Shown here piece after piece: positions 3,235 to 54,665 of a stretch of DNA of 64,000 bases. Positions within the stretch are counted from its first letter, which is position 1, and the number at the start of each line of letters is the position of its first letter. Both the position numbers and the translations under genes were made by a program. The notes below the pieces were generated by a model, which worked only from the letters and a program-made list of their open reading frames with translations, was not told where the DNA came from and did not search any database. Source of the stretch: an uncultured Alphaproteobacteria bacterium (lineage in GTDB: Bacteria; Pseudomonadota; Alphaproteobacteria; RF32; CAG-239); NCBI GenBank assembly GCA_934248075.1, contig CAKQKH010000003.1, positions 46,710 to 110,709 on the forward strand, given 5' to 3'.

Positions 3235-3327
3235 ACTTGTTCTCCATTCGACCTGCCGCCATTATACTGATAAATAGATAAAATTTAATTAACCAAAGCC
3301 AAAGGTTTTTATTGTGGCAACACTTGC

Positions 3328-3496
3328 GCCATCTGCATCTGCACCATAACCATAACCACAGCCACAGCCACAGCCACAACCATAATCACGACCACAACCA
3401 TAATCACGACCACAACTATAATCACAACCATAACCATAATCACGACCATAACCATAATCACGACCATAACCATAATCACGCCGCAGCCACAACCAT
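3328..3496. repeat. Hexanucleotide (CCAYAR/TCACGA) microsatellite with 18-nt higher-order units
   Basis: About 28 consecutive hexamers, for example CCATAACCATAATCACGA x3 and CCACAACCATAATCACGA x2, plus a CCACAG x3 block. The tract has no stop codon in 4 of 6 frames, which produces the four overlapping track ORFs. Confidence 0.85.
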
Positions 3497-3574
3497 TGCT
3501 CGCAACACAAAATATCCACAATCATTATCGTTTATCGATAGGCGATAATGTTGTGCATTAAAGCAAAATTGCCA

Positions 3575-3694
3575 AGTAATAATTGCACATAAAACAACTT
3601 CAATAATCGCACACTAAACAATTTCAATAATCGTACACTAATCAACTTCAATAATCGCACATAAAACAACTTTAACAAATAATAGTTGCGCACA
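3575..3694. repeat. 24-bp tandem repeat array (about 4-5 units)
   Basis: The units are TTCAATAATCGCACACTAAACAAT, TTCAATAATCGTACACTAATCAAC and TTCAATAATCGCACATAAAACAAC, plus degenerate flanking units. The array lies between the htpG terminator and the microsatellite. Confidence 0.8.
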
Positions 3695-3713
3695 TTTTTT
3701 GCCCCCAACCCCA

Positions 3714-5732: not shown

Positions 5733-5972
5733 ATGGTATCTGTTGTTAATGACTCTTGCGTAAAATGCAAATCTTGCGCTGACGTATGCCCTGTGGACGC
5801 TTTTCATGAAGGCGACACTCAACTGGTAGTTGATCCCGACACCTGCATTGATTGCGGCGTTTGCATTTCCGAATGCCCGCAAGAAGCCATTTGCCCTGAC
5901 AGCGAAGCTGATGAAAAATGGATTCAGTTCAATGCTGAGAACGCTAAAATTTGGCCAAACGCCAACGAATAG
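5733..5972 (+). CDS. 2x[4Fe-4S]-type ferredoxin
   Basis: 79 aa with two CxxCxxCxxxCP motifs: [12 protein letters not shown] and [12 protein letters not shown]. Confidence 0.9.
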
Positions 5973-5998
5973 TTTTCCACTATTTGCAGAATTTAAGA

Positions 5999-6027
5999 GC
6001 CGCGGCATTGTCTGCGGCTTTTTTTTG
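5999..6027 (+). terminator. Rho-independent terminator of the ferredoxin gene
   Basis: Stem GCCGCGG / CTGCGGC (one G-U pair) is followed by T9 at 6019-6027. Confidence 0.65.
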
Positions 6028-6082
6028 ATTGCATAAAGACTATTTATCAGTTAGATTCGGGAAAATATACATAAGCAAGCTG

Positions 6083-6262
6083 GCGCAATGTACAAAAAAT
6101 AACACATAAGGAGGTCGGCTTGCGACATGACGACTATTTAGGTACGGCTGTTTTTCTTTCATAAATAGCCGTGCTGGAAGCAAGACGGCCGACGCAGTGT
6201 ACAAAAAATAGTTCATAAGGAGGTCGGCTTGCGACATGACGACTATTTAGGAAAGAAAAAAA
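6083..6262 (+). repeat. Structured intergenic repeat, family A, copy 1 (forms the complete 5' leader of the PfkB kinase gene)
   Basis: It is nearly identical to 7827-7977. It contains two direct copies of AAGGAGGTCGGCTTGCGACATGACGACTATTTAGG (6108-6142 and 6217-6251) flanking an internal hairpin (ACGGCTGTTT/AAATAGCCGT) and the complementary segment GCAAGACGGCCGAC (6180-6193). The element ends at the start codon. Confidence 0.8.
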
Positions 6263-6265
6263 ACT

Positions 6266-7279
6266 ATGAAAACAGAAACATATTATGATATTGTTGGTAT
6301 TGGCAATGCCATTGTTGATGTTTTGGCAAAGGTCGGAGATGGTTTTCTCAAAGAACGCGAATTGCCTAAGGGCTGTATGACCCTTATGGACGCCCAGACT
6401 GCCGGCAAAATTTATGCAGATATTGTTCCAGAACGCGAGGTTCCGGGGGGGTCTGCGGCTAACACCGTGGCAGGAATAGCATCTTTAGGCGGCACTCCGG
6501 CTTTTATCGGCAAAATTCATGATGATGAGCTGGGGCAAGAATTCACTCGCGACATTGGCGCTGCCGGAGTAGATTTTTTCACGATTCCGTTGGAGGAAGG
6601 CCCGGTTACCGGACGCAGTGTTGTATTGGTAACCCCTGATGCCGAACGCTCGATGTTTACGTATTTGGGCGCTGCCACTCATTTAACTGAAGAAGATATT
6701 GACGAAGAAATAATTAGAGCCGGAAAAATAACGTATATTGAGGGTTATCTGTGGGATACTGAATGCTGCCAGGGCGCACTGACCAAAGCTTGTCAAATTG
6801 CGCATAAACATGGCCGCAAAATAGCCTTTACCCTATCTGACACCACCTGCATTTGCCGTAATCGCGAAGCTATTTTCGACTTTATTAAAGAATATGTTGA
6901 CATTTTATTCGCTAACGAAGAAGAAATCAAAGCGCTTTTTGCTGAAATTGATTTTTATAAAAGTCTTGACTTGATAAAACCATACGTTGAAATTGCCGCT
7001 ATCACTCGCGGACAAAAGGGATCTGTAGTTGTAAAAGGCCGCACAAAAACCTTTGTTGAAGCAGAAATTGTTGAAGACGTGGTAGATACCACCGGCGCTG
7101 GAGACTTATATGCCGCCGGTTTTCTTTATGGCTTAACCCAAGAGCGCAGCCTTGGCACCTGTGCAATGATCGGCTCCATCGCCGCGGCTGAAATCATCAC
7201 TCACTATGGCGCCAGACCGGAAGTCTCGCTCCGCGGATTAGTGCGCAATAAATTGCTTTCTTATGGTATAAAAGCCTAA
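6266..7279 (+). CDS. PfkB-family carbohydrate/nucleoside kinase (adenosine-kinase-like)
   Basis: 337 aa. The N-terminus is YDIVGIGNAIVDVL...GGSAANTVAGIASLGG, and the C-terminus carries the PfkB signature DTTGAGDLYAAGFLYG. Confidence 0.85.
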   Translation: MKTETYYDIVGIGNAIVDVLAKVGDGFLKERELPKGCMTLMDAQTAGKIYADIVPEREVPGGSAANTVAGIASLGGTPAFIGKIHDDELGQEFTRDIGAAGVDFFTIPLEEGPVTGRSVVLVTPDAERSMFTYLGAATHLTEEDIDEEIIRAGKITYIEGYLWDTECCQGALTKACQIAHKHGRKIAFTLSDTTCICRNREAIFDFIKEYVDILFANEEEIKALFAEIDFYKSLDLIKPYVEIAAITRGQKGSVVVKGRTKTFVEAEIVEDVVDTTGAGDLYAAGFLYGLTQERSLGTCAMIGSIAAAEIITHYGARPEVSLRGLVRNKLLSYGIKA

Positions 7280-7292
7280 AAATACAATCCAC

Positions 7293-7324
7293 AAAAAAAG
7301 GCATCTTGAAGATGCCTTTTTTTC
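7293..7324. terminator. Bidirectional hairpin terminator between convergent genes
   Basis: Stem AAAGGCATC / GATGCCTTT with loop TTGAA is flanked by an A-run on the left and a T-run on the right. It sits between the stops at 7279 (+) and 7323 (-). Confidence 0.7.
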
Positions 7325-7610
7325 AAAATCTACGATTCCCGCGGCGGCGAAAGACATCGGCAATAGCGTAAACTATCTTCGCCATAAGCCAGCCGCCAAA
7401 TATGGGGTAGAATGCCCACCACCACGAAAAGTGTGCCCAAAGGATCACTCCGGCAGTAGCTAATAAACTCCACCCGATTGACAGATAGAGTATTTTTCTT
7501 TTTATCTGCCACAATCTTTCTGACCGTTTCCAGTCCAACTTACGATATGTATATATCGTTAATAAAAACAGTCCGAAAATATAGACCGTGACAATTATTA
7601 TTGTTGCCAT
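7323..7610 (-). CDS. Small hypothetical membrane protein (about 3 TM)
   Basis: 95-aa ORF with Trp-rich hydrophobic segments and a basic C-terminus (RRRGNRRF). There is no clear SD and no recognisable family. Confidence 0.45.
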   Translation of the reverse strand: MATIIIVTVYIFGLFLLTIYTYRKLDWKRSERLWQIKRKILYLSIGWSLLATAGVILWAHFSWWWAFYPIFGGWLMAKIVYAIADVFRRRGNRRF

Positions 7611-7826
7611 AATTTTATATTTAATAATTTCTAACTTGTTGTTTTGCCGCTAGAGTATGCTATTTTTATTCAAAAGTAAATCTTTTTTTGTCCAAAGCAT
7701 AAAAAACTTCATTAAATTATTGAAATTTAATTTCAAAAGTGTATTGTAAGGCCAACTTTGAAATAATGAAAATTATTTTGCCGGCAAGCTATAAACTGTT
7801 TGCCGGAGCAGGTTTGCCTTCCGCGC

Positions 7827-7977
7827 GGAGTCGGCTTGCGACATGGTGACTATTTAGGTGCGGCTGTTTTTCTTTCATAAATAGCCGTGCTGGAAGCAAG
7901 ACGGCCGACGCAGTGTACAAATAGAGGTACATAAGGAGGTCGGCTTGCGACATGACGACTATTTAGGAAAGAAAAAA
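7827..7977 (+). repeat. Structured intergenic repeat, family A, copy 2 (forms the 5' leader of typA)
   Basis: It has the same architecture as 6083-6262 and only a few substitutions. It ends at the typA ATG with the shared TATTTAGGAAAGAAAAAA. Confidence 0.8.
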
Positions 7978-9798
7978 ATGATGAATATGAGAAATATTGC
8001 CATAATAGCTCACGTTGACCACGGCAAAACCACATTGGTTGACGGATTGTTAAAGCAGAGCGGCACTTTTAGAGACAACCAGAAGGTTGATACTTGCGTT
8101 ATGGATAGCAATGACTTGGAGAGGGAGAGAGGAATTACGATTCTTTCCAAGTGTACGTCGGTTAATTGGCACGGAACCCACATTAACATTGTTGATACTC
8201 CGGGGCACGCTGATTTTGGCGGCGAAGTGGAACGTATATTGTCTATGGTTGACGGCGTGGTTTTGTTAGTCGATTCATCTGAAGGCCCGATGCCGCAAAC
8301 CAAATTTGTATTGGGCAAAGCCCTCAAACTCGGTTTATGCCCAATTGTCGTTATCAACAAAGCTGACAAGGCTGATGCACGCTGCGATGAGGTTTTGAAT
8401 GAAGTTTTTGATTTGTTTGTAAGTCTTGATGCCAACGACAAGCAGCTGGATTTTCCGGTGCTATATGCTTCTGGCCGCAATGGTTGGGCAGTTAAAGAGC
8501 TGGAAGACGAGAAAAAAGATTTGAGTCCGTTGTTTGAACTGATTCTCTCTTACGTTCCGGAACCAGCTTGCGAACCAAACAAACCTTTTTCCATGCTGGC
8601 AACCACATTGGAAGCCGATAAGTTCATCGGCCGTTTGATAACCGGCAAAATCCAGTCCGGCACTTTGCATGTTAATGACACTGTCAAAGTGCTAGATGGC
8701 ACCAATAAAGAAATTGAACGTGTCCGCATCAGTAAGATTTTGGCATATCGCGGCCTCAATCGCGAATCATTGGAAGAGGCTCATGCCGGAGACATTATTG
8801 CGGTAGCCGGCGTTGTTAAAGGCACTGTGGCTGACACTCTTTGCGCGTTTGAAGTTTCTGAGGCCATTCATGCTCAGCCGATTGACCCTCCGACTTTGGC
8901 CATGACTTTTTCGATTAACGATTCGCCGTTGGCCGGTCGTGAAGGCGACAAAGTAACCTCGCGCATGATTTGGGATCGTCTCTGCAAAGAAGCCGAGGGT
9001 AACATTGCGCTCAAAATTTCCCGCACCGACACCACCGATTCGTTTGAGGTTGCCGGACGTGGAGAATTACAGTTAGGCGTCTTGATTGAAACCATGCGCC
9101 GCGAAGGATTTGAGCTTTCTATCTCTCGTCCGCGCGTGCTGATGAAAAAAGATGAAAACGGCAAACTTCTTGAACCGATTGAAGAAGTTGTGGTTGACGT
9201 TGATGAAGAATTTTCTGGTGCCGTAGTTGAAAAACTCGGCCAGCGCCGCGCCGAAATGATAGATATGATTCCGTCTCAAGTCGGCAACAAAGTTCGCTTG
9301 ATTTTCAATGCGCCATCACGCGGACTGATTGGTTATCACTCTGAATTTTTGACAGACACCCGCGGCACTGGTGTCATGAACCGCCTGTTCAAGTGTTATG
9401 AACCCTACAAAGGTGAAATTGACAGCCGCCGCAATGGTGTTTTGATTTCATCAGAAACCGGCACTGCCATTGCTTATTCATTGTGGAAATTGCAAGATCG
9501 CGGCCCAATGTTTATTGATCCGGGTGTTCCGGTATATACCGGCATGATTATCGGCGAACATACCAAGCCCAATGATATTGAAGTTAACCCTTGCAAAGCC
9601 AAACAGCTTACCAACATCCGTGCCGCCGGCAAAGATGAAGCCATTGACTTGGTTCCGCCACGTAAAATGAGTCTGGAACAAGGCTTGTCTTATATTCAAG
9701 AAGACGAATTATTAGAGGTTACCCCCAAAACTTTGCGCCTGCGCAAACGGATTCTTGATCCGATCGCTCGCAAACGCCAAAAGCCTGGTGATTTCTAA
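7978..9798 (+). CDS. typA: Translational GTPase TypA/BipA
   Basis: MMNMRNIAIIAHVDHGKTTLVDGLL...DTPGHADFGGEVER...NKADK. I place the start at ATG 7978. The track start at 7945 is a TTG inside the repeat element. Confidence 0.93.
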   Translation: MMNMRNIAIIAHVDHGKTTLVDGLLKQSGTFRDNQKVDTCVMDSNDLERERGITILSKCTSVNWHGTHINIVDTPGHADFGGEVERILSMVDGVVLLVDSSEGPMPQTKFVLGKALKLGLCPIVVINKADKADARCDEVLNEVFDLFVSLDANDKQLDFPVLYASGRNGWAVKELEDEKKDLSPLFELILSYVPEPACEPNKPFSMLATTLEADKFIGRLITGKIQSGTLHVNDTVKVLDGTNKEIERVRISKILAYRGLNRESLEEAHAGDIIAVAGVVKGTVADTLCAFEVSEAIHAQPIDPPTLAMTFSINDSPLAGREGDKVTSRMIWDRLCKEAEGNIALKISRTDTTDSFEVAGRGELQLGVLIETMRREGFELSISRPRVLMKKDENGKLLEPIEEVVVDVDEEFSGAVVEKLGQRRAEMIDMIPSQVGNKVRLIFNAPSRGLIGYHSEFLTDTRGTGVMNRLFKCYEPYKGEIDSRRNGVLISSETGTAIAYSLWKLQDRGPMFIDPGVPVYTGMIIGEHTKPNDIEVNPCKAKQLTNIRAAGKDEAIDLVPPRKMSLEQGLSYIQEDELLEVTPKTLRLRKRILDPIARKRQKPGDF

Positions 9799-9805
9799 AA
9801 CCAAC

Positions 9806-9840
9806 AAAGCCCCAAGCACACTGTTTGGGGCTTTAATTTT
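9806..9840 (+). terminator. Rho-independent terminator of typA
   Basis: Stem AAAGCCCCAA / TTGGGGCTTT is followed by AATTTT. Confidence 0.65.
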
Positions 9841-9844
9841 AATA

Positions 9845-9875
9845 ACAAAAAAGCTCCGAAAATATCCGGAGCTTT
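9845..9875 (-). terminator. Rho-independent terminator of the 9909-10280 gene
   Basis: Stem AGCTCCG / CGGAGCT is followed in the minus sense by a T-run (plus-strand A-run 9847-9851). Confidence 0.6.
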
Positions 9876-9908
9876 CAAATTTGCCTATGGAGAAAACGGA
9901 AAAACCGA

Positions 9909-10280
9909 TTAACGACCGCCGGAACTCCTATAACCACCGACCGTTGCAACCGACGGAACTTTTTTCTTAAATGGATTTAGTCGTCCGCACAGAGTTGAGA
10001 TTCTTCCCTTCAAATCTTTAGACAAGCCGCCAACAACTTTGGCAAGAGCCACCGCGGCCTTACCCGAAACTGTCCGAGTATTTCCGCTCGCCAAATGCTT
10101 ATTATAATCAGCATACATTTGTCTGGCAGACTTAATACCCTTATAAGTCTCCGGCATATGTTGCTGAATCATTCTGGAACCTTCGGCCAACTCCAAACCT
10201 TTGTCCGTAATTTTGCTGACAAAGGAATCAAGACCGTGAAACACGCCGCCCAGCCCCCTTGTTTTTTTAACCTCGCTCAT
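9909..10280 (-). CDS. Hypothetical protein (123 aa)
   Basis: The ORF reads MSEVKKTRGLGGVFHGLDSF...GGYRSSGGR. I prefer ATG 10280, which is preceded by GGAG 8 nt upstream, over the track GTG at 10349. No family was recognised. Confidence 0.5.
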   Translation of the reverse strand: MSEVKKTRGLGGVFHGLDSFVSKITDKGLELAEGSRMIQQHMPETYKGIKSARQMYADYNKHLASGNTRTVSGKAAVALAKVVGGLSKDLKGRISTLCGRLNPFKKKVPSVATVGGYRSSGGR

Positions 10281-34205: not shown

Positions 34206-34298
34206 ATCTATTTTTATTTAATATTTAACTCACTTGTCAGATTAGACAAAACGCCTGACAAAGTCAACAAAAAACCATCGACCAAATTTCGATTACAA

Positions 34299-34642
34299 AA
34301 AACTCCGGAGAACAGTACAGATAGATGCATCTAAAAGCAAGCAAAATCAGAGTGAGTAAACAGAAGTAAAAAGAGAAAAGCATAATAAAAAAATAGCCGG
34401 ATAACGGAATTTATAGTGTGATTTGCAGGGCGGAAGTACCGGAGCGTACAAAGTAGTACGTGAGGACACTTCCGACCCGAACAAATCGCTCTAAAAAATC
34501 ATTAGGGAACCTCAACCGCAAAAACTCCGAAGAATGGTACAGATAGAGGCACTTGGAAGACGAGGAAAATTTTAGTGTACAAAGAAGTACATGAATTTTC
34601 CGAGCTCGCACCAAATGCCTCTAGATGTGCCGTTATACGGAG
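34299..34642 (-). repeat. Structured intergenic repeat, family B (degenerate copy, GTAC hairpin, and an intact roughly 118-nt long hairpin that acts as the pnp terminator)
   Basis: The intact unit 34525-34642 matches the units at 52021-52133 and 51841-51922. It begins 3 nt after the pnp stop and, in the minus sense, is followed by TTTTT (plus-strand A-run 34520-34524). Confidence 0.8.
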
Positions 34643-34645
34643 TTT

Positions 34646-36766
34646 TTATTTTTCGAGGTCTTCACCTGTCTCCTGATTAACCCTCTTTGCAGAAAGCTTA
34701 ATTTTACCACGGTTATCGCAGCCAAGACATTTAACCCAAATTTGGTCGCCTTCTTTATAGAAGTCAGAAACCGAAGCTATACGCTCGTTCTTAACTTCTG
34801 AAATATGAACCAAACCCTCGGTTGTTCCCAAGAAGCGGACAAATGCACCAAAGTCCATAATTTTGGTAATGGTACCATGATAAATTTTTCCTTCTTCAGG
34901 TTCGGCCACAATGCCCATAACCCATTCCAGAGCGGCATCGCCTTCTTCTTTTTTCATAGAAGCGATTTTTACAATTCCGTCATCTGAAATATCAATTTTG
35001 GTATGAGTCTTTTCAACGATTTCTCGAATAACCTTACCGCCGGTGCCGATAACTTCACGAATTTTATCAACCGGAATCTTAATGGCAACAATCCGCGGAG
35101 CACGGTCTGAAACATGCGGACGAGGCTCAGCAATAGCCTTGGCCATTTCGCCCAAGATATGGATACGACCTTCATGAGCCTGAGCCAAAGCTGTTTTCAT
35201 AATCTCTTTGGTAATGGAAGTAATTTTAATATCCATTTGCAAAGCGGTAACGCCGTCTTTTGTTCCGGCTACCTTAAAGTCCATATCGCCAAGGTGATCT
35301 TCATCGCCCAAGATATCGGTCAAAACCGCAACTCGGCCGTCATCCTCCTTAATCAAACCCATTGCAATACCTGCAACCGGCTTAACCATCGGCACACCAG
35401 CAGCCATCAACGACATGGTGGAGCCGCAAACTGTAGCCATAGAAGAAGAACCGTTAGACTCCATAATTTCCGAAACCACACGAACCGTGTAAGGGAAAGA
35501 GTCTTTGTCTTTTGGCATCATCGGGTGGATAGCGCGCCAAGCCAATTTGCCGTGACCGATTTCACGACGTCCTGGGCTGCCCAAACGGCCGCATTCGCCA
35601 ACTGAAAATGGCGGGAAGTTATAGTTCAGCATAAAGTCTTCTTTATACTCGTCCATCAAACCGTCAACAATTTGAGCATCATCGCCGGTTCCCAAAGTAG
35701 TAACGACCAGAGCCTGAGTCTCGCCACGAGTAAACAACGCCGAACCATGAGCCGTCGGCAACACATCAACTTGACAAGAAATCGGACGAACAGTTTTGGT
35801 GTCGCGTCCATCGATTCGGTGACCGGTAGTCAAAACCGCTTCACGCATAACCTTATGCATCAATTTCTCAATAGCATCTTGAGCATAACGCTGTTCAAAC
35901 TCATTTTCCGGATCCAATGTTTCCTTAAACTTTTCTGATGCCGCAGCAATCAACTCACCGCGTTTCAACTTATCGGTCTCTTTGAAAGCGACCTCAAAAT
36001 CGGCGGTAAAGCCTTGAGCCAATTTGGCATAAAGTTCATCAAACTCAGGCGGAAATGCCGGAGCCTCCCATTTTTCTTTACCGGCTTCAGCCTCAAGTTC
36101 CTCAATCAGTTTAATAACCGGCTGAAAACTCTCAAATCCGAACATAACCGCGTTCAGCATGGTTTCTTCCGAAAGTTCCTGAGCCTCAGACTCAACCATC
36201 AAAACGCCTTCTTTAGTACCGGCAACAACCAACTCCAAATCTGTATCTTTGAGCTGCTCGATAGTCGGGTTCAAAATAAATTCGCCATTTTTATAGCCAA
36301 CCTTTGCGCCGCCAATCGGCCCCATAAATGGAATCCCCGAAACCGCCAAAGCCGCAGAAGCCGCAATCATAGCCGGAATATCGGAGTCAGTGTTTTGGTC
36401 ATGAGCCAAAACCGTGCAGACAATTTGCACTTCATTCTTAAACGCGTCAGGAAACAGCGGACGTATCGGACGATCAATCAGACGAGAAAGCAAAACTTCT
36501 CGCTCAGATGGCTTGCCTTCACGTTTCATAAAACCGCCCGGAACTTTACCGGTAGCATAGTATTTTTCCTGATAGTTAACAGTCAAAGGAAAGAAATCCT
36601 GATCTGCCTTTACCTCTTTTGCTGCGCAAACCGTTGCAATAACCTGTGTCTCACCATAAGTAACAACCACAGCTCCTTGCGCTTGTCTGGCCATTTTGCC
36701 TGTTTCCAACACCAACTTGCGGCCGCCCCATTCCATTTCTTTGCGGCACACTTTAAAATCGATCAT
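34646..36766 (-). CDS. pnp: Polyribonucleotide nucleotidyltransferase (PNPase)
   Basis: 706 aa with two RNase PH domains plus KH and S1 domains, including [21 protein letters not shown] and a C-terminal S1 region containing [18 protein letters not shown]. Confidence 0.97.
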
Positions 36767-51754: not shown

Positions 51755-51840
51755 CCAAAAAGCTCTGCAATCTTGCAGGGCTTTTTATTTGCATTAATAC
51801 TCAGATTTTCAGAGAGGTTAAATAGCATGCGCGAATAAAA

Positions 51841-52236
51841 GGCGAGGAAAATTTTAGTGTACAAAGAAGTACATGAATTTTCCGAGACCGTGCTAAATGC
51901 CTCTAGATGTGCCGTTATACGGTATCAAAACTGATAAAGGCTTGCGCTACGCTGATTAAGGTAAGCGACGTGTACAAAAATAGGTACACGAGCGAACCGC
52001 AATCGCAAATGAATCAAAAAGTCCGGAGAACGATACAGATAGAGGCATTTAGAAGGCGAGGAAAATTTTAGTGTACAAAGAAGTACATGAATTTTCCGAA
52101 ACCATGCTAAATGCCTCTAGATGTGCCGTTATACGGTATCAAAACTGATAAAGGCTTGCGCTACGCTGATTAAGGTGAGCGACGTGTACAAAAACAGGTA
52201 CACGAGCGAACCGCAATCAAGTATGGCAAGCCTTTT
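51841..52236 (-). repeat. Structured intergenic repeat, family B: two tandem 214-bp composite units downstream of hppA
   Basis: Units starting at 51841 and 52055 differ at about 4 positions. Each holds a long hairpin (GGAAAATT..GTGTACAAAGAAGTACAT..AATTTTCC inside AGAGGCATTTAG/CTAAATGCCTCT) and a second GTAC hairpin (CGTGTACAAAAAYAGGTACACG). Confidence 0.85.
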
Positions 52237-52250
52237 GCAGCTTTGACTTT

Positions 52251-54665
52251 TTAGAGTTTCTCGATACGCATCCGATAGAACGATCTCCATACAAAGATCA
52301 AACCAAGGATGAAGAAACCGATTCCCAAACTTAGGGATACACAACGTGGAGCTGATACGGCCATTTCAACGGCCAACAGACCAAACAGAGTGGTAAATTT
52401 GATAATCGGGTTCAGCGCTACCGAAGAAGTATCTTTGTAGGGGTCGCCTACGGTGTCACCGACTACGGCGGCGGCATGCAGAGGAGTACCCTTTTCATTT
52501 AAATCCACTTCTACGACTTTCTTGGCATTATCCCAGGCTCCGCCGGCATTGGCCATATAGAGCGCTTGGAACAACCCAAAGACTGCGATTGAGATCAGGT
52601 AGCTGGCAAACAGATTCGCATCAAAACAAGCAAACGCCATCGTAAACGAGAAGATTACGATAAAGATATTGAACATACCTTTCTGCGCATAAAGAGTGCA
52701 AATCTGTACAACCTTTTTAGAGTCCTCAATCGAAGCAGCTTTAGCAGTATCAAGTTTAATGTGTTTCTTGATATAGTTAACCGCACGATACGCACCGGTA
52801 GAAACCGCCTGCATAGATGCTCCCGAGAACCAGAAGATAACCGCGCCGCCCAAAATAATTCCGAACAGGACTTCCGGAGCCAGCAGGTTTAGTTGCAAGT
52901 TCAAGAGCAAGATGATTGAGAAAATCATGGTGGTTGCGCCAATAACCGCTGTGCCAATCAGCACCGGTTTGGCCGTGGCCTTAAAGGTATTGCCGGCACT
53001 GTCATTTTCTTCCAGATAATGCTTGCCGTTCTCAAAATCAGGCTTAAAGCCATAGTCTTTTTCAATTTCTTTAGCAATGCCTTTTTGGCTCTCAATCTGT
53101 GAAAGTTCAAACACAGACTGAGCATTATCGGTAACCGGACCATAGGAGTCAACAGCGATAGTAACCGGCCCCATGCCCAGCATACCAAAGGCCACCAAAC
53201 CAAAAGCGAATACGGTCGGATAAACCATATAAGCATCTAGTCCGGTGCGCGCCGTAAAGAACGCAATCGCCATCAGACCGACCATTACCAATCCCTGCCA
53301 AAAGGCTGAGAAGTTACCGGCAATAATACCAGAGATAATGTTCAGAGAAGCGCCCGCTTCACGACTGGCATTAACCACTTCTTCAACGTGCTTAGATTTT
53401 GAAGAAGTAAAGATTTTGGTAAATTCCGGAATCAAGGCCGCCGCCAAAGTGCCGCAGGAAATGATAACCGAAAGTTTCCACCACAAAGCTCCGAAACCGG
53501 CCAACATCACATAAGAAACGCCAAATGTTACCAAAATAGAAATGATTGAAGTCAACCAAATCAATGTGGTTAACGGGGTTTCAAAGTTAAATGATTTCTT
53601 GTTGCCAAATATGGCGGCAGAAGCCTTTGAATTCAACCAATAAGACACGATTGAGGTCAAAATCATCAGCACGCGCATAACAAAAATCCAGACAATCAAG
53701 CGAGCCTGAAAATCAACGCCGTTTTCCATCAACATCAAATTGCCGTTGGGGGCATACATCATACCAGCGCCCAAAACAATAAAGCTGATAAGAGCAACAC
53801 CGGTTACGCCGTAGGTTTCAAAACCATCTGCAGTCGGACCAACCGAGTCGCCGGCATTATCACCGGTACAGTCGGCAATCACGCCGGGGTTGCGGGCATC
53901 ATCTTCATCAATCTTAAAAATGATTTTCATCAAATCTGCGCCAATGTCGGCAATCTTGGTAAAGATACCGCCACAAATACGCAATGCGGCAGCGCCCAGC
54001 GATTCGCCGATAGCAAAGCCCACAAAGCAGGCGCCGGCGTTTTCTTTGGCCACAAACAGCAAAATGGTAATCATCATAATCAGCTCAACGCAAATCAGCA
54101 AAACGCCAATAGACATTCCTGAGCGCAATGGCAGGCTCATCACCGGATACGGCTGTCCCTTAAGCGACAAAAAAGCCGTGCGGGAATTGGCATAAGTATT
54201 GATTCTCATGCCGAACCACGCCACCAAAAACGATCCCAAAATACCAAAGATTGACCACATCAAAATAGTCAACACCTTAGACATTGGGGTAGCATTAAGA
54301 TAATAAAAATAATAAAAAATGCAGGCGGCAATAAACAACTCTAAAACCACCAACAATTTTGCCTGCTGTTTCATATAAGTTTTGCAGGTTTCATAAATAG
54401 TATTAGAAACATTGAGCATCAGCTTGTGAGCCGGCATTTTTTTGATCAAGCAAAATTCGCTCAAACCAAAAACCATACCCAAAACACAGATACCCATACC
54501 ATACAAAAGCAACTGTGCGCCTGTTACAGACCAGCCGAAGATATTGTAAGCAACATCTAACGACGGCACTTTTAGGTCAATCTCAGATGCCATGGCACTT
54601 GTAGCAAACGCCACAGTTAGCAGCATTGCCAAAGCAAAACTGCTAATTTTTTTTAAGTTTATCAT
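52251..54665 (-). CDS. hppA: Membrane-bound proton-translocating pyrophosphatase (V-PPase)
   Basis: 804-aa polytopic protein with motifs GGIFTKIADIGADL, DNAGDSVGP, GDTVGDPYKDTSSVALNPIIKF and GGAWDNAKK. Confidence 0.95.
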   Translation of the reverse strand: MINLKKISSFALAMLLTVAFATSAMASEIDLKVPSLDVAYNIFGWSVTGAQLLLYGMGICVLGMVFGLSEFCLIKKMPAHKLMLNVSNTIYETCKTYMKQQAKLLVVLELFIAACIFYYFYYLNATPMSKVLTILMWSIFGILGSFLVAWFGMRINTYANSRTAFLSLKGQPYPVMSLPLRSGMSIGVLLICVELIMMITILLFVAKENAGACFVGFAIGESLGAAALRICGGIFTKIADIGADLMKIIFKIDEDDARNPGVIADCTGDNAGDSVGPTADGFETYGVTGVALISFIVLGAGMMYAPNGNLMLMENGVDFQARLIVWIFVMRVLMILTSIVSYWLNSKASAAIFGNKKSFNFETPLTTLIWLTSIISILVTFGVSYVMLAGFGALWWKLSVIISCGTLAAALIPEFTKIFTSSKSKHVEEVVNASREAGASLNIISGIIAGNFSAFWQGLVMVGLMAIAFFTARTGLDAYMVYPTVFAFGLVAFGMLGMGPVTIAVDSYGPVTDNAQSVFELSQIESQKGIAKEIEKDYGFKPDFENGKHYLEENDSAGNTFKATAKPVLIGTAVIGATTMIFSIILLLNLQLNLLAPEVLFGIILGGAVIFWFSGASMQAVSTGAYRAVNYIKKHIKLDTAKAASIEDSKKVVQICTLYAQKGMFNIFIVIFSFTMAFACFDANLFASYLISIAVFGLFQALYMANAGGAWDNAKKVVEVDLNEKGTPLHAAAVVGDTVGDPYKDTSSVALNPIIKFTTLFGLLAVEMAVSAPRCVSLSLGIGFFILGLIFVWRSFYRMRIEKL

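Follow-up and report, generated by a model that had tools for sequence, protein, structure and literature searches.

A 64,000-nt stretch of contig CAKQKH010000003.1 from an uncultured alphaproteobacterium (hereafter the window) raises the question of why two neighbouring genes, pfkB (encoding a PfkB-family kinase) and typA, are preceded right up to their start codons by the same repeat, termed here family A, and of what this repeat may do there. An earlier note, made from the letters alone, had described it as a portable, structured 5′ leader carrying two copies of a Shine-Dalgarno (SD) motif with a four-codon mini-open reading frame (mini-ORF), and had read its mutually exclusive pairing options as an attenuator or translational switch. 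Our analysis points to a plus-strand RNA hairpin, built by duplication of an older and shorter leader, which may well act in cis as a translational operator masking the ribosome-binding site (RBS) of the gene downstream.

The genes in question are ordered ferredoxin, PfkB-family kinase, a small minus-strand ORF and typA; TypA is identified by a TIGR01394 match (925 bits versus a cut-off of 757), and the NCBI naming for related kinases is 'adenosine kinase'. A repeat search returned a 149-nt repeat of 95% identity (6072-6265 versus 7827-7977) abutting both start codons, the typA copy stopping at the typA ATG with the same TATTTAGGAAAGAAAAAA as the kinase copy, and the coordinates and strings given for it earlier were confirmed. 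The search also returned a 64-nt repeat family with a spacing of 109 nt, that is, a head-to-tail array with a 109-nt period, which comprises about 1.75 units at pfkB and 1.4 at typA. The two direct copies of SD-like motif and four-codon mini-ORF were found as described, in successive 109-nt units (AAGGAGGTCGGCTTGCGACATGACGACTATTTAG at 6108-6141 and 6217-6250), with ATG ACG ACT ATT TAG (MTTI) at 6127-6141 and 6236-6250; the second stop indeed lies 15 nt before the main kinase ATG at 6266. A 30-mer, GGTCGGCTTGCGACATGACGACTATTTAGG, occurs four times with up to 3 mismatches, always on the plus strand, where 100 shuffles gave an expectation of 0. Each unit is one large imperfect palindrome with arms L and R (the middle segment, GCAAGACGGCCGAC, at 6180-6193, falls within an L arm), and the array reads R L R L R. 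The features of the two leaders are as follows.

6029-6057, plus strand: promoter-like TTGCAT-N17-TAGATT of the PfkB-family kinase, read from the sequence.
6072-6086, plus strand: truncated first L arm AAGCAAGCTGGCGCA at the start of the pfkB array; pairs with 6114-6123 in the minimum free energy fold; weak nhmmer match at 6076-6111.
6108-6142, plus strand: upstream unit with SD-like AAGGAGG (6108-6114) and arm R1 holding mini-ORF 1 (6127-6141, MTTI and stop).
6144-6172, plus strand: inner hairpin ACGGCTGTTT/AAATAGCCGT at the R1-L1 junction, arms 6144-6153 and 6163-6172, present only in the upstream (R1:L1) conformer.
6151-6260, plus strand: main pfkB leader hairpin, with arm L1 (6151-6193), apical region and arm R2 (6222-6260).
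6217-6250, plus strand: gene-proximal SD-like AAGGAGG (6217-6223) and mini-ORF 2 (6236-6250).
6249-6268, plus strand: kinase SD AGGAAAG (6249-6255), A-rich spacer and start codon (6266-6268) of ORF 6266-7279, which has a PfkB domain.
7720-7747, plus strand: promoter-like TTGAAA-N16-TATTGT of typA, from a consensus scan and an identity block with relative L002.
7827-7858, plus strand: upstream partial unit R′1 of the typA array, with mini-ORF ATGGTGACTATTTAG (7843-7857, MVTI and stop).
7868-7975, plus strand: main typA leader hairpin, with L arm, apical hairpin GUGUAC (7913-7918)/GUACAU (7927-7932) and R arm.
7933-7983, plus strand: gene-proximal SD-like AAGGAGG (7933-7939), mini-ORF (7952-7966), typA SD AGGAAAG (7965-7971) and starts at 7978/7981.

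The census of family A copies covered the 64 kb of the source genome and the flanks of relatives. Outside the pfkB and typA loci, nhmmer found no further copy in the 64 kb, even at E ≤ 10, and Tandem Repeats Finder missed the array itself, which holds fewer than two full copies. Public genome and metagenome scans with the exact mini-ORF core pattern returned one contig each, the former from a related metagenome-assembled genome (MAG) and the latter from a metagenome collection, both matches being orthologous typA leaders. Rfam 15 gave 0 matches at gathering score over the whole window, and an E-value search of 5950-8050 gave only noise within the element (e.g. PreQ1, 16 bits versus a gathering score of 39), in line with the earlier statement that no known riboswitch or leader family is recognisable here. 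A protein-coding reading of the repeat was discarded given stops in all six frames of every unit; a 167-aa composite of all its open segments matched no predicted protein among 5.8 billion clusters, a result which is uninformative on dispersal. A plasmid or phage origin was set aside as blastn in 'distant' mode gave no match, and 19 viral-contig matches to a 17-base apical pattern, 0 of which were recognised by the covariance model, are probably chance.

What do the units form once transcribed? The dominant predicted structure is a 110-nt hairpin in both leaders (6151-6260 and 7868-7975; −41.6 and −44.7 kcal/mol at pfkB and typA, respectively); the small inner hairpin to which attention had been drawn earlier is present at 6144-6172, but it is not the dominant fold. 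Folding of the full leaders gave z-scores of −4.3 (pfkB) and −5.1 (typA), and covariance model R1 scored the pfkB hairpin at 144 bits and the typA hairpin at 142 bits on the plus strand and 43 on the minus strand. In this hairpin, the 5′ arm L (UUUUUCUUUCAUAAAUAGCCGUGCUGGAAGCAAGACGGCCGAC), with its pyrimidine-rich base, faces the 3′ arm R (GUCGGCUUGCGACAUGACGACUAUUUAGGAAAGAAAAA), and the top is formed by a small GUGUAC/GUACAU hairpin, whose pfkB counterpart (GUGUAC/GUUCAU) is weak, followed by an unpaired AAGGAGG. The mini-ORF AUG is placed in a conserved internal loop and its codons within the middle helix, while in the basal helix of 17-23 bp UUUUUCUUUC pairs with the gene's own SD region, GGAAAGAAAAA.

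In the main hairpin fold, the probability of being unpaired is 0.17 for the main SD AGGAAAG (at pfkB and at typA); it reaches 0.57 in the apical SD-like motif and 0.67 at the AUG of the mini-ORF. Averaged over positions −17 to −7, it is 0.00-0.22 in nine element-bearing leaders versus 0.48-0.88 in five orthologous element-free leaders, which are short and open, measuring 37-67 nt where a length could be estimated by assuming a transcription start 6 nt past the −10 box. The element is accordingly predicted by these folds to turn an open RBS into a masked one. Sequestration of the SD by a conserved hairpin had been missed in the earlier note, as had the strain-level copy-number variation and the related non-leader hairpins described below.

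The structure is upheld by comparison with relatives, which were collected as orthologous loci from gut and other metagenomes via exact-protein look-ups and a ladder of PfkB homologues (loci numbered L001 and onwards). When nine gene-proximal units, drawn from five lineages, were aligned (A2), a single unbranched hairpin of 40 pairs emerged as the consensus, with compensatory changes in 18 of the 40. Paired cells amount to 96.9% versus 87.9 ± 0.9% in shuffled alignments (0 of 500 shuffles reach the observed value), the 18 pairs changed on both sides compare with 8.3 ± 1.8 after shuffling and 1-3 in slid registers, and the covariation score is 0.355 versus 0.181 in the control. The upper stem is wholly replaced between lineages (GCAAGACGGCCGAC/GUCGGCUUGC, AUCAGC/GCUGA, GUAAGUUGGC/GCCAAUUUAC and GCGAAUUUAAU/AUUAAAUUCGC), and the internal loop GCUGGAA/GACAUGAC is invariant across them. 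Among non-Watson-Crick cells, G•U occurs in 7 pairs and A•C in 1; since such an excess of G•U speaks for plus-strand RNA rather than for a purely DNA-level palindrome, the selected structure appears to be the plus-strand RNA, and the earlier description as a structured leader is borne out by covariation and G•U asymmetry.

The leader is, moreover, strongly conserved in sequence. When the window is set against L001/L002, the last 125 nt of the leader show 3-7 changed positions, compared with 10-16 of 50 third positions in the first 150 nt of the typA coding sequence and 33-37% of third positions over the whole of it, amounting to a conservation 6-13 times that of neighbouring synonymous sites. 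We rejected recent horizontal transfer as the cause; a recent whole-block transfer is unlikely because the adjacent coding sequence has diverged and so has a 20-nt patch of the typA leader. This patch follows a 112-nt identity block and shows compensatory changes of its own (CUUCCGCGCGGAG versus CUUCUGCACAGAAG).

The identity block itself (about 7700-7810, including the promoter and two small hairpins) is 100% identical to L002 despite 33% synonymous divergence. In the window group, the typA leader is extended by an additional stretch (7700-7830) lying 5′ of the repeat.

Both arrays are placed between a promoter-like site and a start codon. At pfkB, this site lies 3′ of the ferredoxin terminator (5995-6022); a consensus promoter scan does not pick it up, so weak is its match, and its activity is inferred from its conservation, the TTGCAN-N17-TAnATT layout being kept in L007, L008, L013, L016, L019 and L024. 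Both promoter-like sites are kept in every relative examined, including element-free ones. Given their conservation 5′ of both arrays, transcription through the element is strongly implied. The notion of a portable leader module is likewise sustained, as the element occupies the interval between conserved promoter and start of two genes in at least three lineages (the window group, L007 and L024).

Turning to the mini-ORF, GACATGAC is invariant in the gene-proximal units of the alignment, and the gene-proximal four-codon ORF is intact in every leader copy examined, comprising the hairpin-bearing leaders of five lineages and three hairpin-less ones. It encodes MTTI, MTVI, MMTI or MMTF and ends with UAG or UAA 11-17 nt before the main AUG. 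In all hairpin-bearing lineages, an SD-like purine run (AAGGAGG, AAGGGAG, AAAGGAG, AAGGAA or GGAAGGG) is located 5′ of it, at 12-14 nt from its AUG. Diverged upstream copies are often broken, as seen in the middle unit of L002, typA unit 1 of L007, the R′ remnant of L024 and an internal unit of L026. These patterns are consistent with a function of the mini-ORF.

Taken together, these features suggest a model in which L is an inverted copy of R, the old short leader reaching from near the transcription start to the start codon, and in which a small conserved apical hairpin (GUGUAC...GUACAC) joins the two arms. Pairing of L with R would lock the real SD, AGGAAAG, in the basal helix and render it unusable by free 30S subunits. 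A ribosome loading at the exposed apical SD and translating the four-codon ORF would then melt the middle and basal helices, after which it could re-initiate at the main AUG or leave the RBS open for another ribosome. Synthesis of TypA and of the kinase would in this manner depend on how readily ribosomes are available, or on whichever factor governs the mini-ORF. A masked RBS is known to be opened by RNA unfolding and by re-initiation after a short ORF (PMC12548453), and short-ORF-dependent RBS opening is exemplified by R1 tap/repA and IncI2 repR/repA (PMC8053102) and by mgtQ/mgtB (PMC8092293). We consider the structural and evolutionary layer of this explanation very probable, and masking of the RBS, as judged from folding models, somewhat probable as the function; opening by the mini-ORF is put forward tentatively, and the explanation as a whole, that is, an operator hairpin masking the RBS, stands in our view at an even balance.

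Several observations weigh against this model. The distance of 12-14 nt from SD-like motif to mini-ORF AUG is long and spans the 10-bp upper stem, and efficient initiation at the mini-ORF cannot be taken for granted. Since the stop shares bases with the main SD and codons 2-4 pair with L, the conservation of the mini-ORF is inseparable from structural and SD constraint. In addition, L008 and L009 retain the mini-ORF without any SD, and the peptide drifts (MTTI, MTVI, MMTI, MVTI). Many close relatives (L008, L009, L013, L016 and L049) do without the element, which is thus dispensable, and related hairpins are present outside leaders; the scaffold in itself is thus no leader device. Template switching from one inverted-repeat arm to the other can, furthermore, mimic compensatory change at the DNA level (PMC13100816, PMC7202029). 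Finally, the copy numbers reported below come from short-read assemblies and may be collapsed.

How the element is distributed among relatives bears directly on its origin. The order htpG-fdx-pfkB-(small ORF)-typA is broadly retained, with the small ORF missing in L019 and L049 and typA not adjacent in L023. The element precedes typA in the window group, L007, L019 (as a single unit), L022 and L024, and pfkB in the window group, L007 and L024. It is absent from both leaders in L009, L013, L016 and L049 and from the pfkB leader in L019, L022 and L023, and L008 retains the R part only. R corresponds to the whole ancestral leader, and in L019 and L024 its upper part repeats the typA transcript start GGCGAAUUUA; the R′-L-R layout therefore looks like an inverted plus a direct (tandem) duplication of the leader itself, as inferred from its anatomy.

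Unit number varies even among strains with an identical PfkB protein, namely 1.7 units before pfkB in the window and L004 and 2.7 in L005, and 1.4 before typA in the window and L004 and at least 3.4 in L005, with gaps of Ns at both places in L003. A separate species-level lineage, L002, has 2.4 units at typA, and another lineage repeats the variation (1 unit in L024, at least 2 in L026). These differences among strains probably reflect the gain and loss of 109-nt units by unequal recombination between direct repeats. The pfkB and typA copies are near-identical within the window genome and within L024 and have diverged in L007; their likeness within a genome indicates, as far as sequence comparison can tell, that the two loci, separated by 1.7 kb, are kept similar by copying or gene conversion.

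Contigs end inside the family A array in L001, L005 and L006. More broadly, the N-gaps of L003 (9786-9885 and 11656-11755) and the contig ends of L001, L005, L006, L022, L026 and L048 coincide with arrays of family A or of the related family B described below. The window's own copy number may be underestimated, as arrays of this kind fragment or collapse short-read assemblies.

These same data lend weight to an explanation in which the element is a DNA-level by-product without regulatory role. Inverted-repeat expansion, or a small tandem inversion duplication seeded at a short quasi-palindrome and followed by unequal recombination, would have produced a MIRU-type-like array that persists as long as downstream expression stays adequate. 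The R′-L-R anatomy, with R as the whole ancestral leader, the copy-number variation among identical-protein strains in families A and B, the contig breaks inside arrays, the patchy presence among relatives and the related hairpins at non-leader positions all fit this explanation, and template switching is known to homogenise and extend inverted-repeat arms (PMC13100816, PMC7202029, PMC4689423). It is, however, harder to reconcile with a leader whose conservation is 6-13 times that of the synonymous sites next to it, in lineages between which homogenisation is impossible, or with mismatches that are nearly all plus-strand G•U (7 pairs versus 1), which a DNA process would not favour. Nor would it lead one to expect that the hairpin survives complete turnover of its upper stem in five lineages, and that every hairpin-bearing leader retains the gene-proximal SD-like motif, AUG and stop while diverged upstream copies decay. 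On balance, we regard a mere by-product as unlikely.

Is the hairpin confined to leaders? Searches with the family A covariance model, which the earlier note had proposed, found the family A copies of the 64 kb all co-oriented at start codons, but also related hairpins outside leaders, at 52126-52255 (50 bits), 34390-34511 (26 bits) and 51960-51998. Two features were delineated there, assigned together to a second repeat family (B) of nested, very stable hairpins, each capped by a GUAC...GUAC stem-loop whose loop is A-rich.

51836-52255, plus strand: family B array of two tandem 214-nt units of nested hairpins, from the repeat search and the covariance model; z = −11.
34290-34655, plus strand: further GUAC-capped long hairpins at 34390-34511 and 34520-34655, between two minus-strand genes; 26 bits for the former hairpin; z = −9.7.

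The family B array sits between convergent genes and is not a leader; its hairpin at 52126-52255 has the family A apical module CGACGUGUAC-AAAAACAG-GUACACGAG. Families A and B have unlike arms and have in common the apical CGACGUGUAC-AAAAAnAG-GUACAC(G)AG as well as a 5′ UACGG. Family B is likewise variable in copy number, with two units in the window and L046 and one in L047 (GCA_977943005.1). Family A stands apart in that its arms consist of the gene's leader and RBS and in that it has an SD-like motif and mini-ORF in addition.

The pattern GTACAA-N3-7-GTAC is found 7 times in the window versus 0.13 expected (7915, 34446, 34577, 51859, 51972, 52073 and 52186), in each case on the plus strand, a bias which stems from just four loci and could be due to chance. 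Of the 2-kb windows, all but two (6001-10000, which hold the family A arrays) have negative GC skew. The hairpin at 34520-34655 terminates in a U-run and could be a small RNA (sRNA) or a terminator.

The common apical module raises the possibility that the hairpin is a platform for a trans-acting factor, such as an RNA-binding protein on the GUAC-capped apical hairpin or on the GCUGGAA/GACAUGAC loop, a trans-acting sRNA or RNase III, and that this factor, rather than the mini-ORF, sets RNA stability or RBS access. In keeping with this, the apical module (CGACGUGUAC-A-rich loop-GUACAC) is common to families A and B despite their unrelated arms, the apical motif is enriched as given above, the internal loop is invariant across lineages, and helices of 17-23 bp that are nearly perfect could plausibly be cut by RNase III. 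On the other hand, no protein or sRNA emerged as a candidate, the count of the apical motif derives from four loci only, and the SD-like motif and mini-ORF specific to family A are left unexplained, so that we consider a platform distinctly unlikely as the main explanation. A likeness of GUAC-NNN-AGGA to the sarcin-ricin loop of 23S rRNA, a TypA contact, was not compelling and was dropped.

A more speculative extension combines both families with the copy-number variation. Once inverted and tandem duplication of a gene's leader had produced an RBS-masking hairpin with its own SD and four-codon opener ORF, gain and loss of 109-nt units (0, 1, 2, 3 or more) by recombination could make the leader a self-amplifying module and a heritable, reversible rheostat or contingency locus for the translation of TypA and of the nucleoside/sugar kinase, and the GUAC-capped apical hairpin could mark a wider, undescribed class of expanding hairpin repeats (families A and B), which a single RNA-binding protein might recognise. 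We deem this extension rather unlikely.

We next consider a unit-to-unit switch or attenuator, as the earlier note had proposed, in which the middle segment pairs with either the upstream or the downstream unit and mini-ORF translation or a ligand decides between them. The pairing claim itself held, since both conformers can be folded on paper (−32.3/−28.6 kcal/mol for R1:L versus −41.6/−44.7 for L:R2 at pfkB/typA); the upstream one would form first during transcription and free the gene-proximal RBS, and the typA array holds one more R than L. Yet alternate pairing arises automatically because a palindromic unit has been tandemly duplicated, and it is inherent to any such array. In the single-unit lineages (L019 and the pfkB leader of L024), no strong upstream partner was found by reading, and the upstream R′ remnants in the L007 pfkB leader and in L002 are degenerate and have lost most of their complementarity (as read from the sequence), which argues against switching as a conserved feature. 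In the pfkB array, moreover, R1 has a partner of its own, the truncated L0.

Transcription attenuation, the other half of that proposal, found no support, as no terminator-like hairpin with a U-run occurs within 6030-6265 or 7750-7977, the hairpin being followed 3′ by an A-run instead. As for a ligand, the consensus is one unbranched hairpin with one invariant internal loop, and no multi-stem junction, conserved ligand-pocket-like core, Rfam riboswitch or other known aptamer match was found. Taking both sides into account, we hold a unit-to-unit switch to be quite improbable. A leader-peptide attenuator of the trp/thr type was rejected on the lack of a U-run terminator in either leader, on the four-codon length of the ORF (MTTI, MTVI, MMTI) and on the downstream genes, a PfkB-family kinase and TypA, which do not belong to amino-acid biosynthesis. 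A fourU- or ROSE-type RNA thermometer, whose U-rich strand over the SD would melt with temperature, is highly improbable: UUUUUCUUUC does pair with GGAAAGAAAAA over the SD, and TypA/BipA is linked to low-temperature growth in E. coli, but the hairpin is far too stable to melt near 37°C (40 pairs, −42 to −45 kcal/mol, unpaired probability 0.00-0.22 in the SD region) and the host, judged from Hadza and other gut metagenome samples, lives in the gut, where temperature is constant.

Two further observations concern gene annotation around the element. Gene callers place the TypA start at TTG 7945 inside the repeat (617 aa, 7945-9798). An N-terminal extension of TypA into the repeat was rejected, as the extension is out of frame at pfkB and element-free relatives begin at the same MNMRN/MKMRN; from these comparisons, ATG 7978/7981 (605-606 aa) is the true typA start and the longer call an annotation artefact of the leader element. 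Separately, tandem repeats with periods of 18 nt and 24 nt are found 3′ of htpG (3289-3525 on the minus strand, 3331-3492 and 3578-3697). The 18-nt array lies within a 78-aa ORF of RDYGYG/RDYGCG hexapeptide repeats, and callers predict genes of 78 and 68 aa at these repeats in L003 and of 61 and 60 aa in L004, without any Pfam match.

Overall, it is well supported by the sequence comparisons that the element is a previously undescribed conserved structured RNA, outside Rfam, of uncultured human-gut Alphaproteobacteria, and it adds a structured RNA to the cis-regulatory repertoire of an abundant uncultured gut group. It also suggests an evolutionary path in which a short open leader undergoes inverted and direct duplication that masks the RBS, and the resulting module is copied to a neighbouring gene and amplified. 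To our knowledge, and as far as literature searches tell, little is known of how expression of TypA/BipA is itself regulated; if the opener or the copy-number effect holds true, the element would provide compact, natural, ribosome-dependent or recombination-tunable control of TypA/BipA translation. On the practical side, arrays of this kind break or collapse short-read assemblies and make copy numbers from MAGs unreliable.

Which known systems does the element resemble most? In tap-repA, IncI2 repR-repA, IncB/IncI1 repY-repZ and Salmonella mgtQ-mgtB, translation of a short ORF permits that of the main ORF (PMC8053102, PMC8092293, PMC12548453). As in these systems, the main RBS lies in a stem-loop, its sequestration being predicted here and the helix backed by covariation, and a short upstream ORF with an SD-like motif crosses the inhibitory structure and stops beside the main start, an arrangement found in every gene-proximal copy. 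In contrast to them, the ORF has only four codons and its stop does not overlap the main AUG but precedes it by 11-17 nt, neither an antisense RNA nor a pseudoknot is evident, and the module is tandemly amplified and common to two chromosomal housekeeping-type genes, the dependence on the ORF being only proposed.

Mycobacterial interspersed repetitive units (MIRUs) are about 100 bp or less in length and vary among strains in tandem copy number, which is likewise the case for the intergenic repeat studied here, as far as short-read assemblies tell. Start-codon placement and a small ORF oriented as the downstream gene are further points of likeness (PMC12548453). We nevertheless rejected an assignment to MIRUs proper: their ORF overlaps the downstream start (−4) and they occupy many dispersed loci, whereas the spacing here is +11 to +17 nt at two adjacent loci in 64 kb, with a long covarying RNA hairpin at orthologous positions in several species. 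Thermometers of the fourU/ROSE kind have in common with the element a U-rich strand on the SD, and its unpaired flanks could act as a ribosome-standby site (PMC5934652); the helix here is, by comparison, several-fold longer and more stable and comes with its own SD-like motif and mini-ORF.

An imperfect palindrome of about 110 nt, intergenic, presumably co-transcribed with genes and with related copies elsewhere (family B), is also reminiscent of MITE (miniature inverted-repeat transposable element), REP (repetitive extragenic palindromic), ERIC (enterobacterial repetitive intergenic consensus) and Correia elements. Unlike these, it shows no recognised terminal inverted repeats with target duplication and, in the 64 kb, no dispersed identical copies, and its arms are locus-specific. 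A mobile palindrome of the MITE or REP type was rejected on its placement, since within the 64 kb and the flanks of relatives family A occurs only at two start codons, always with one and the same orientation, and its positions in five lineages are orthologous. A likeness of GTACAGATAG to the Correia repeats of Neisseria was not compelling and was dropped as well.

With inverted-repeat expansion, quasi-palindrome template switching and the inverted triplications of tandem inversion duplication and origin-dependent inverted-repeat amplification (ODIRA), the element has in common the copy-inverted copy-copy layout, short junction hairpins and homogenised arms of local sequence (PMC13100816, PMC7202029, PMC4689423). 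Those are mutational mechanisms, mostly described at other scales or in other organisms, whereas the product here has been kept over speciation with tolerance of G•U pairs. By analogy, then, the element appears closest to leader-peptide coupling in its logic, to MIRUs in its genomic behaviour and to template-switch inverted-repeat expansions in its origin.

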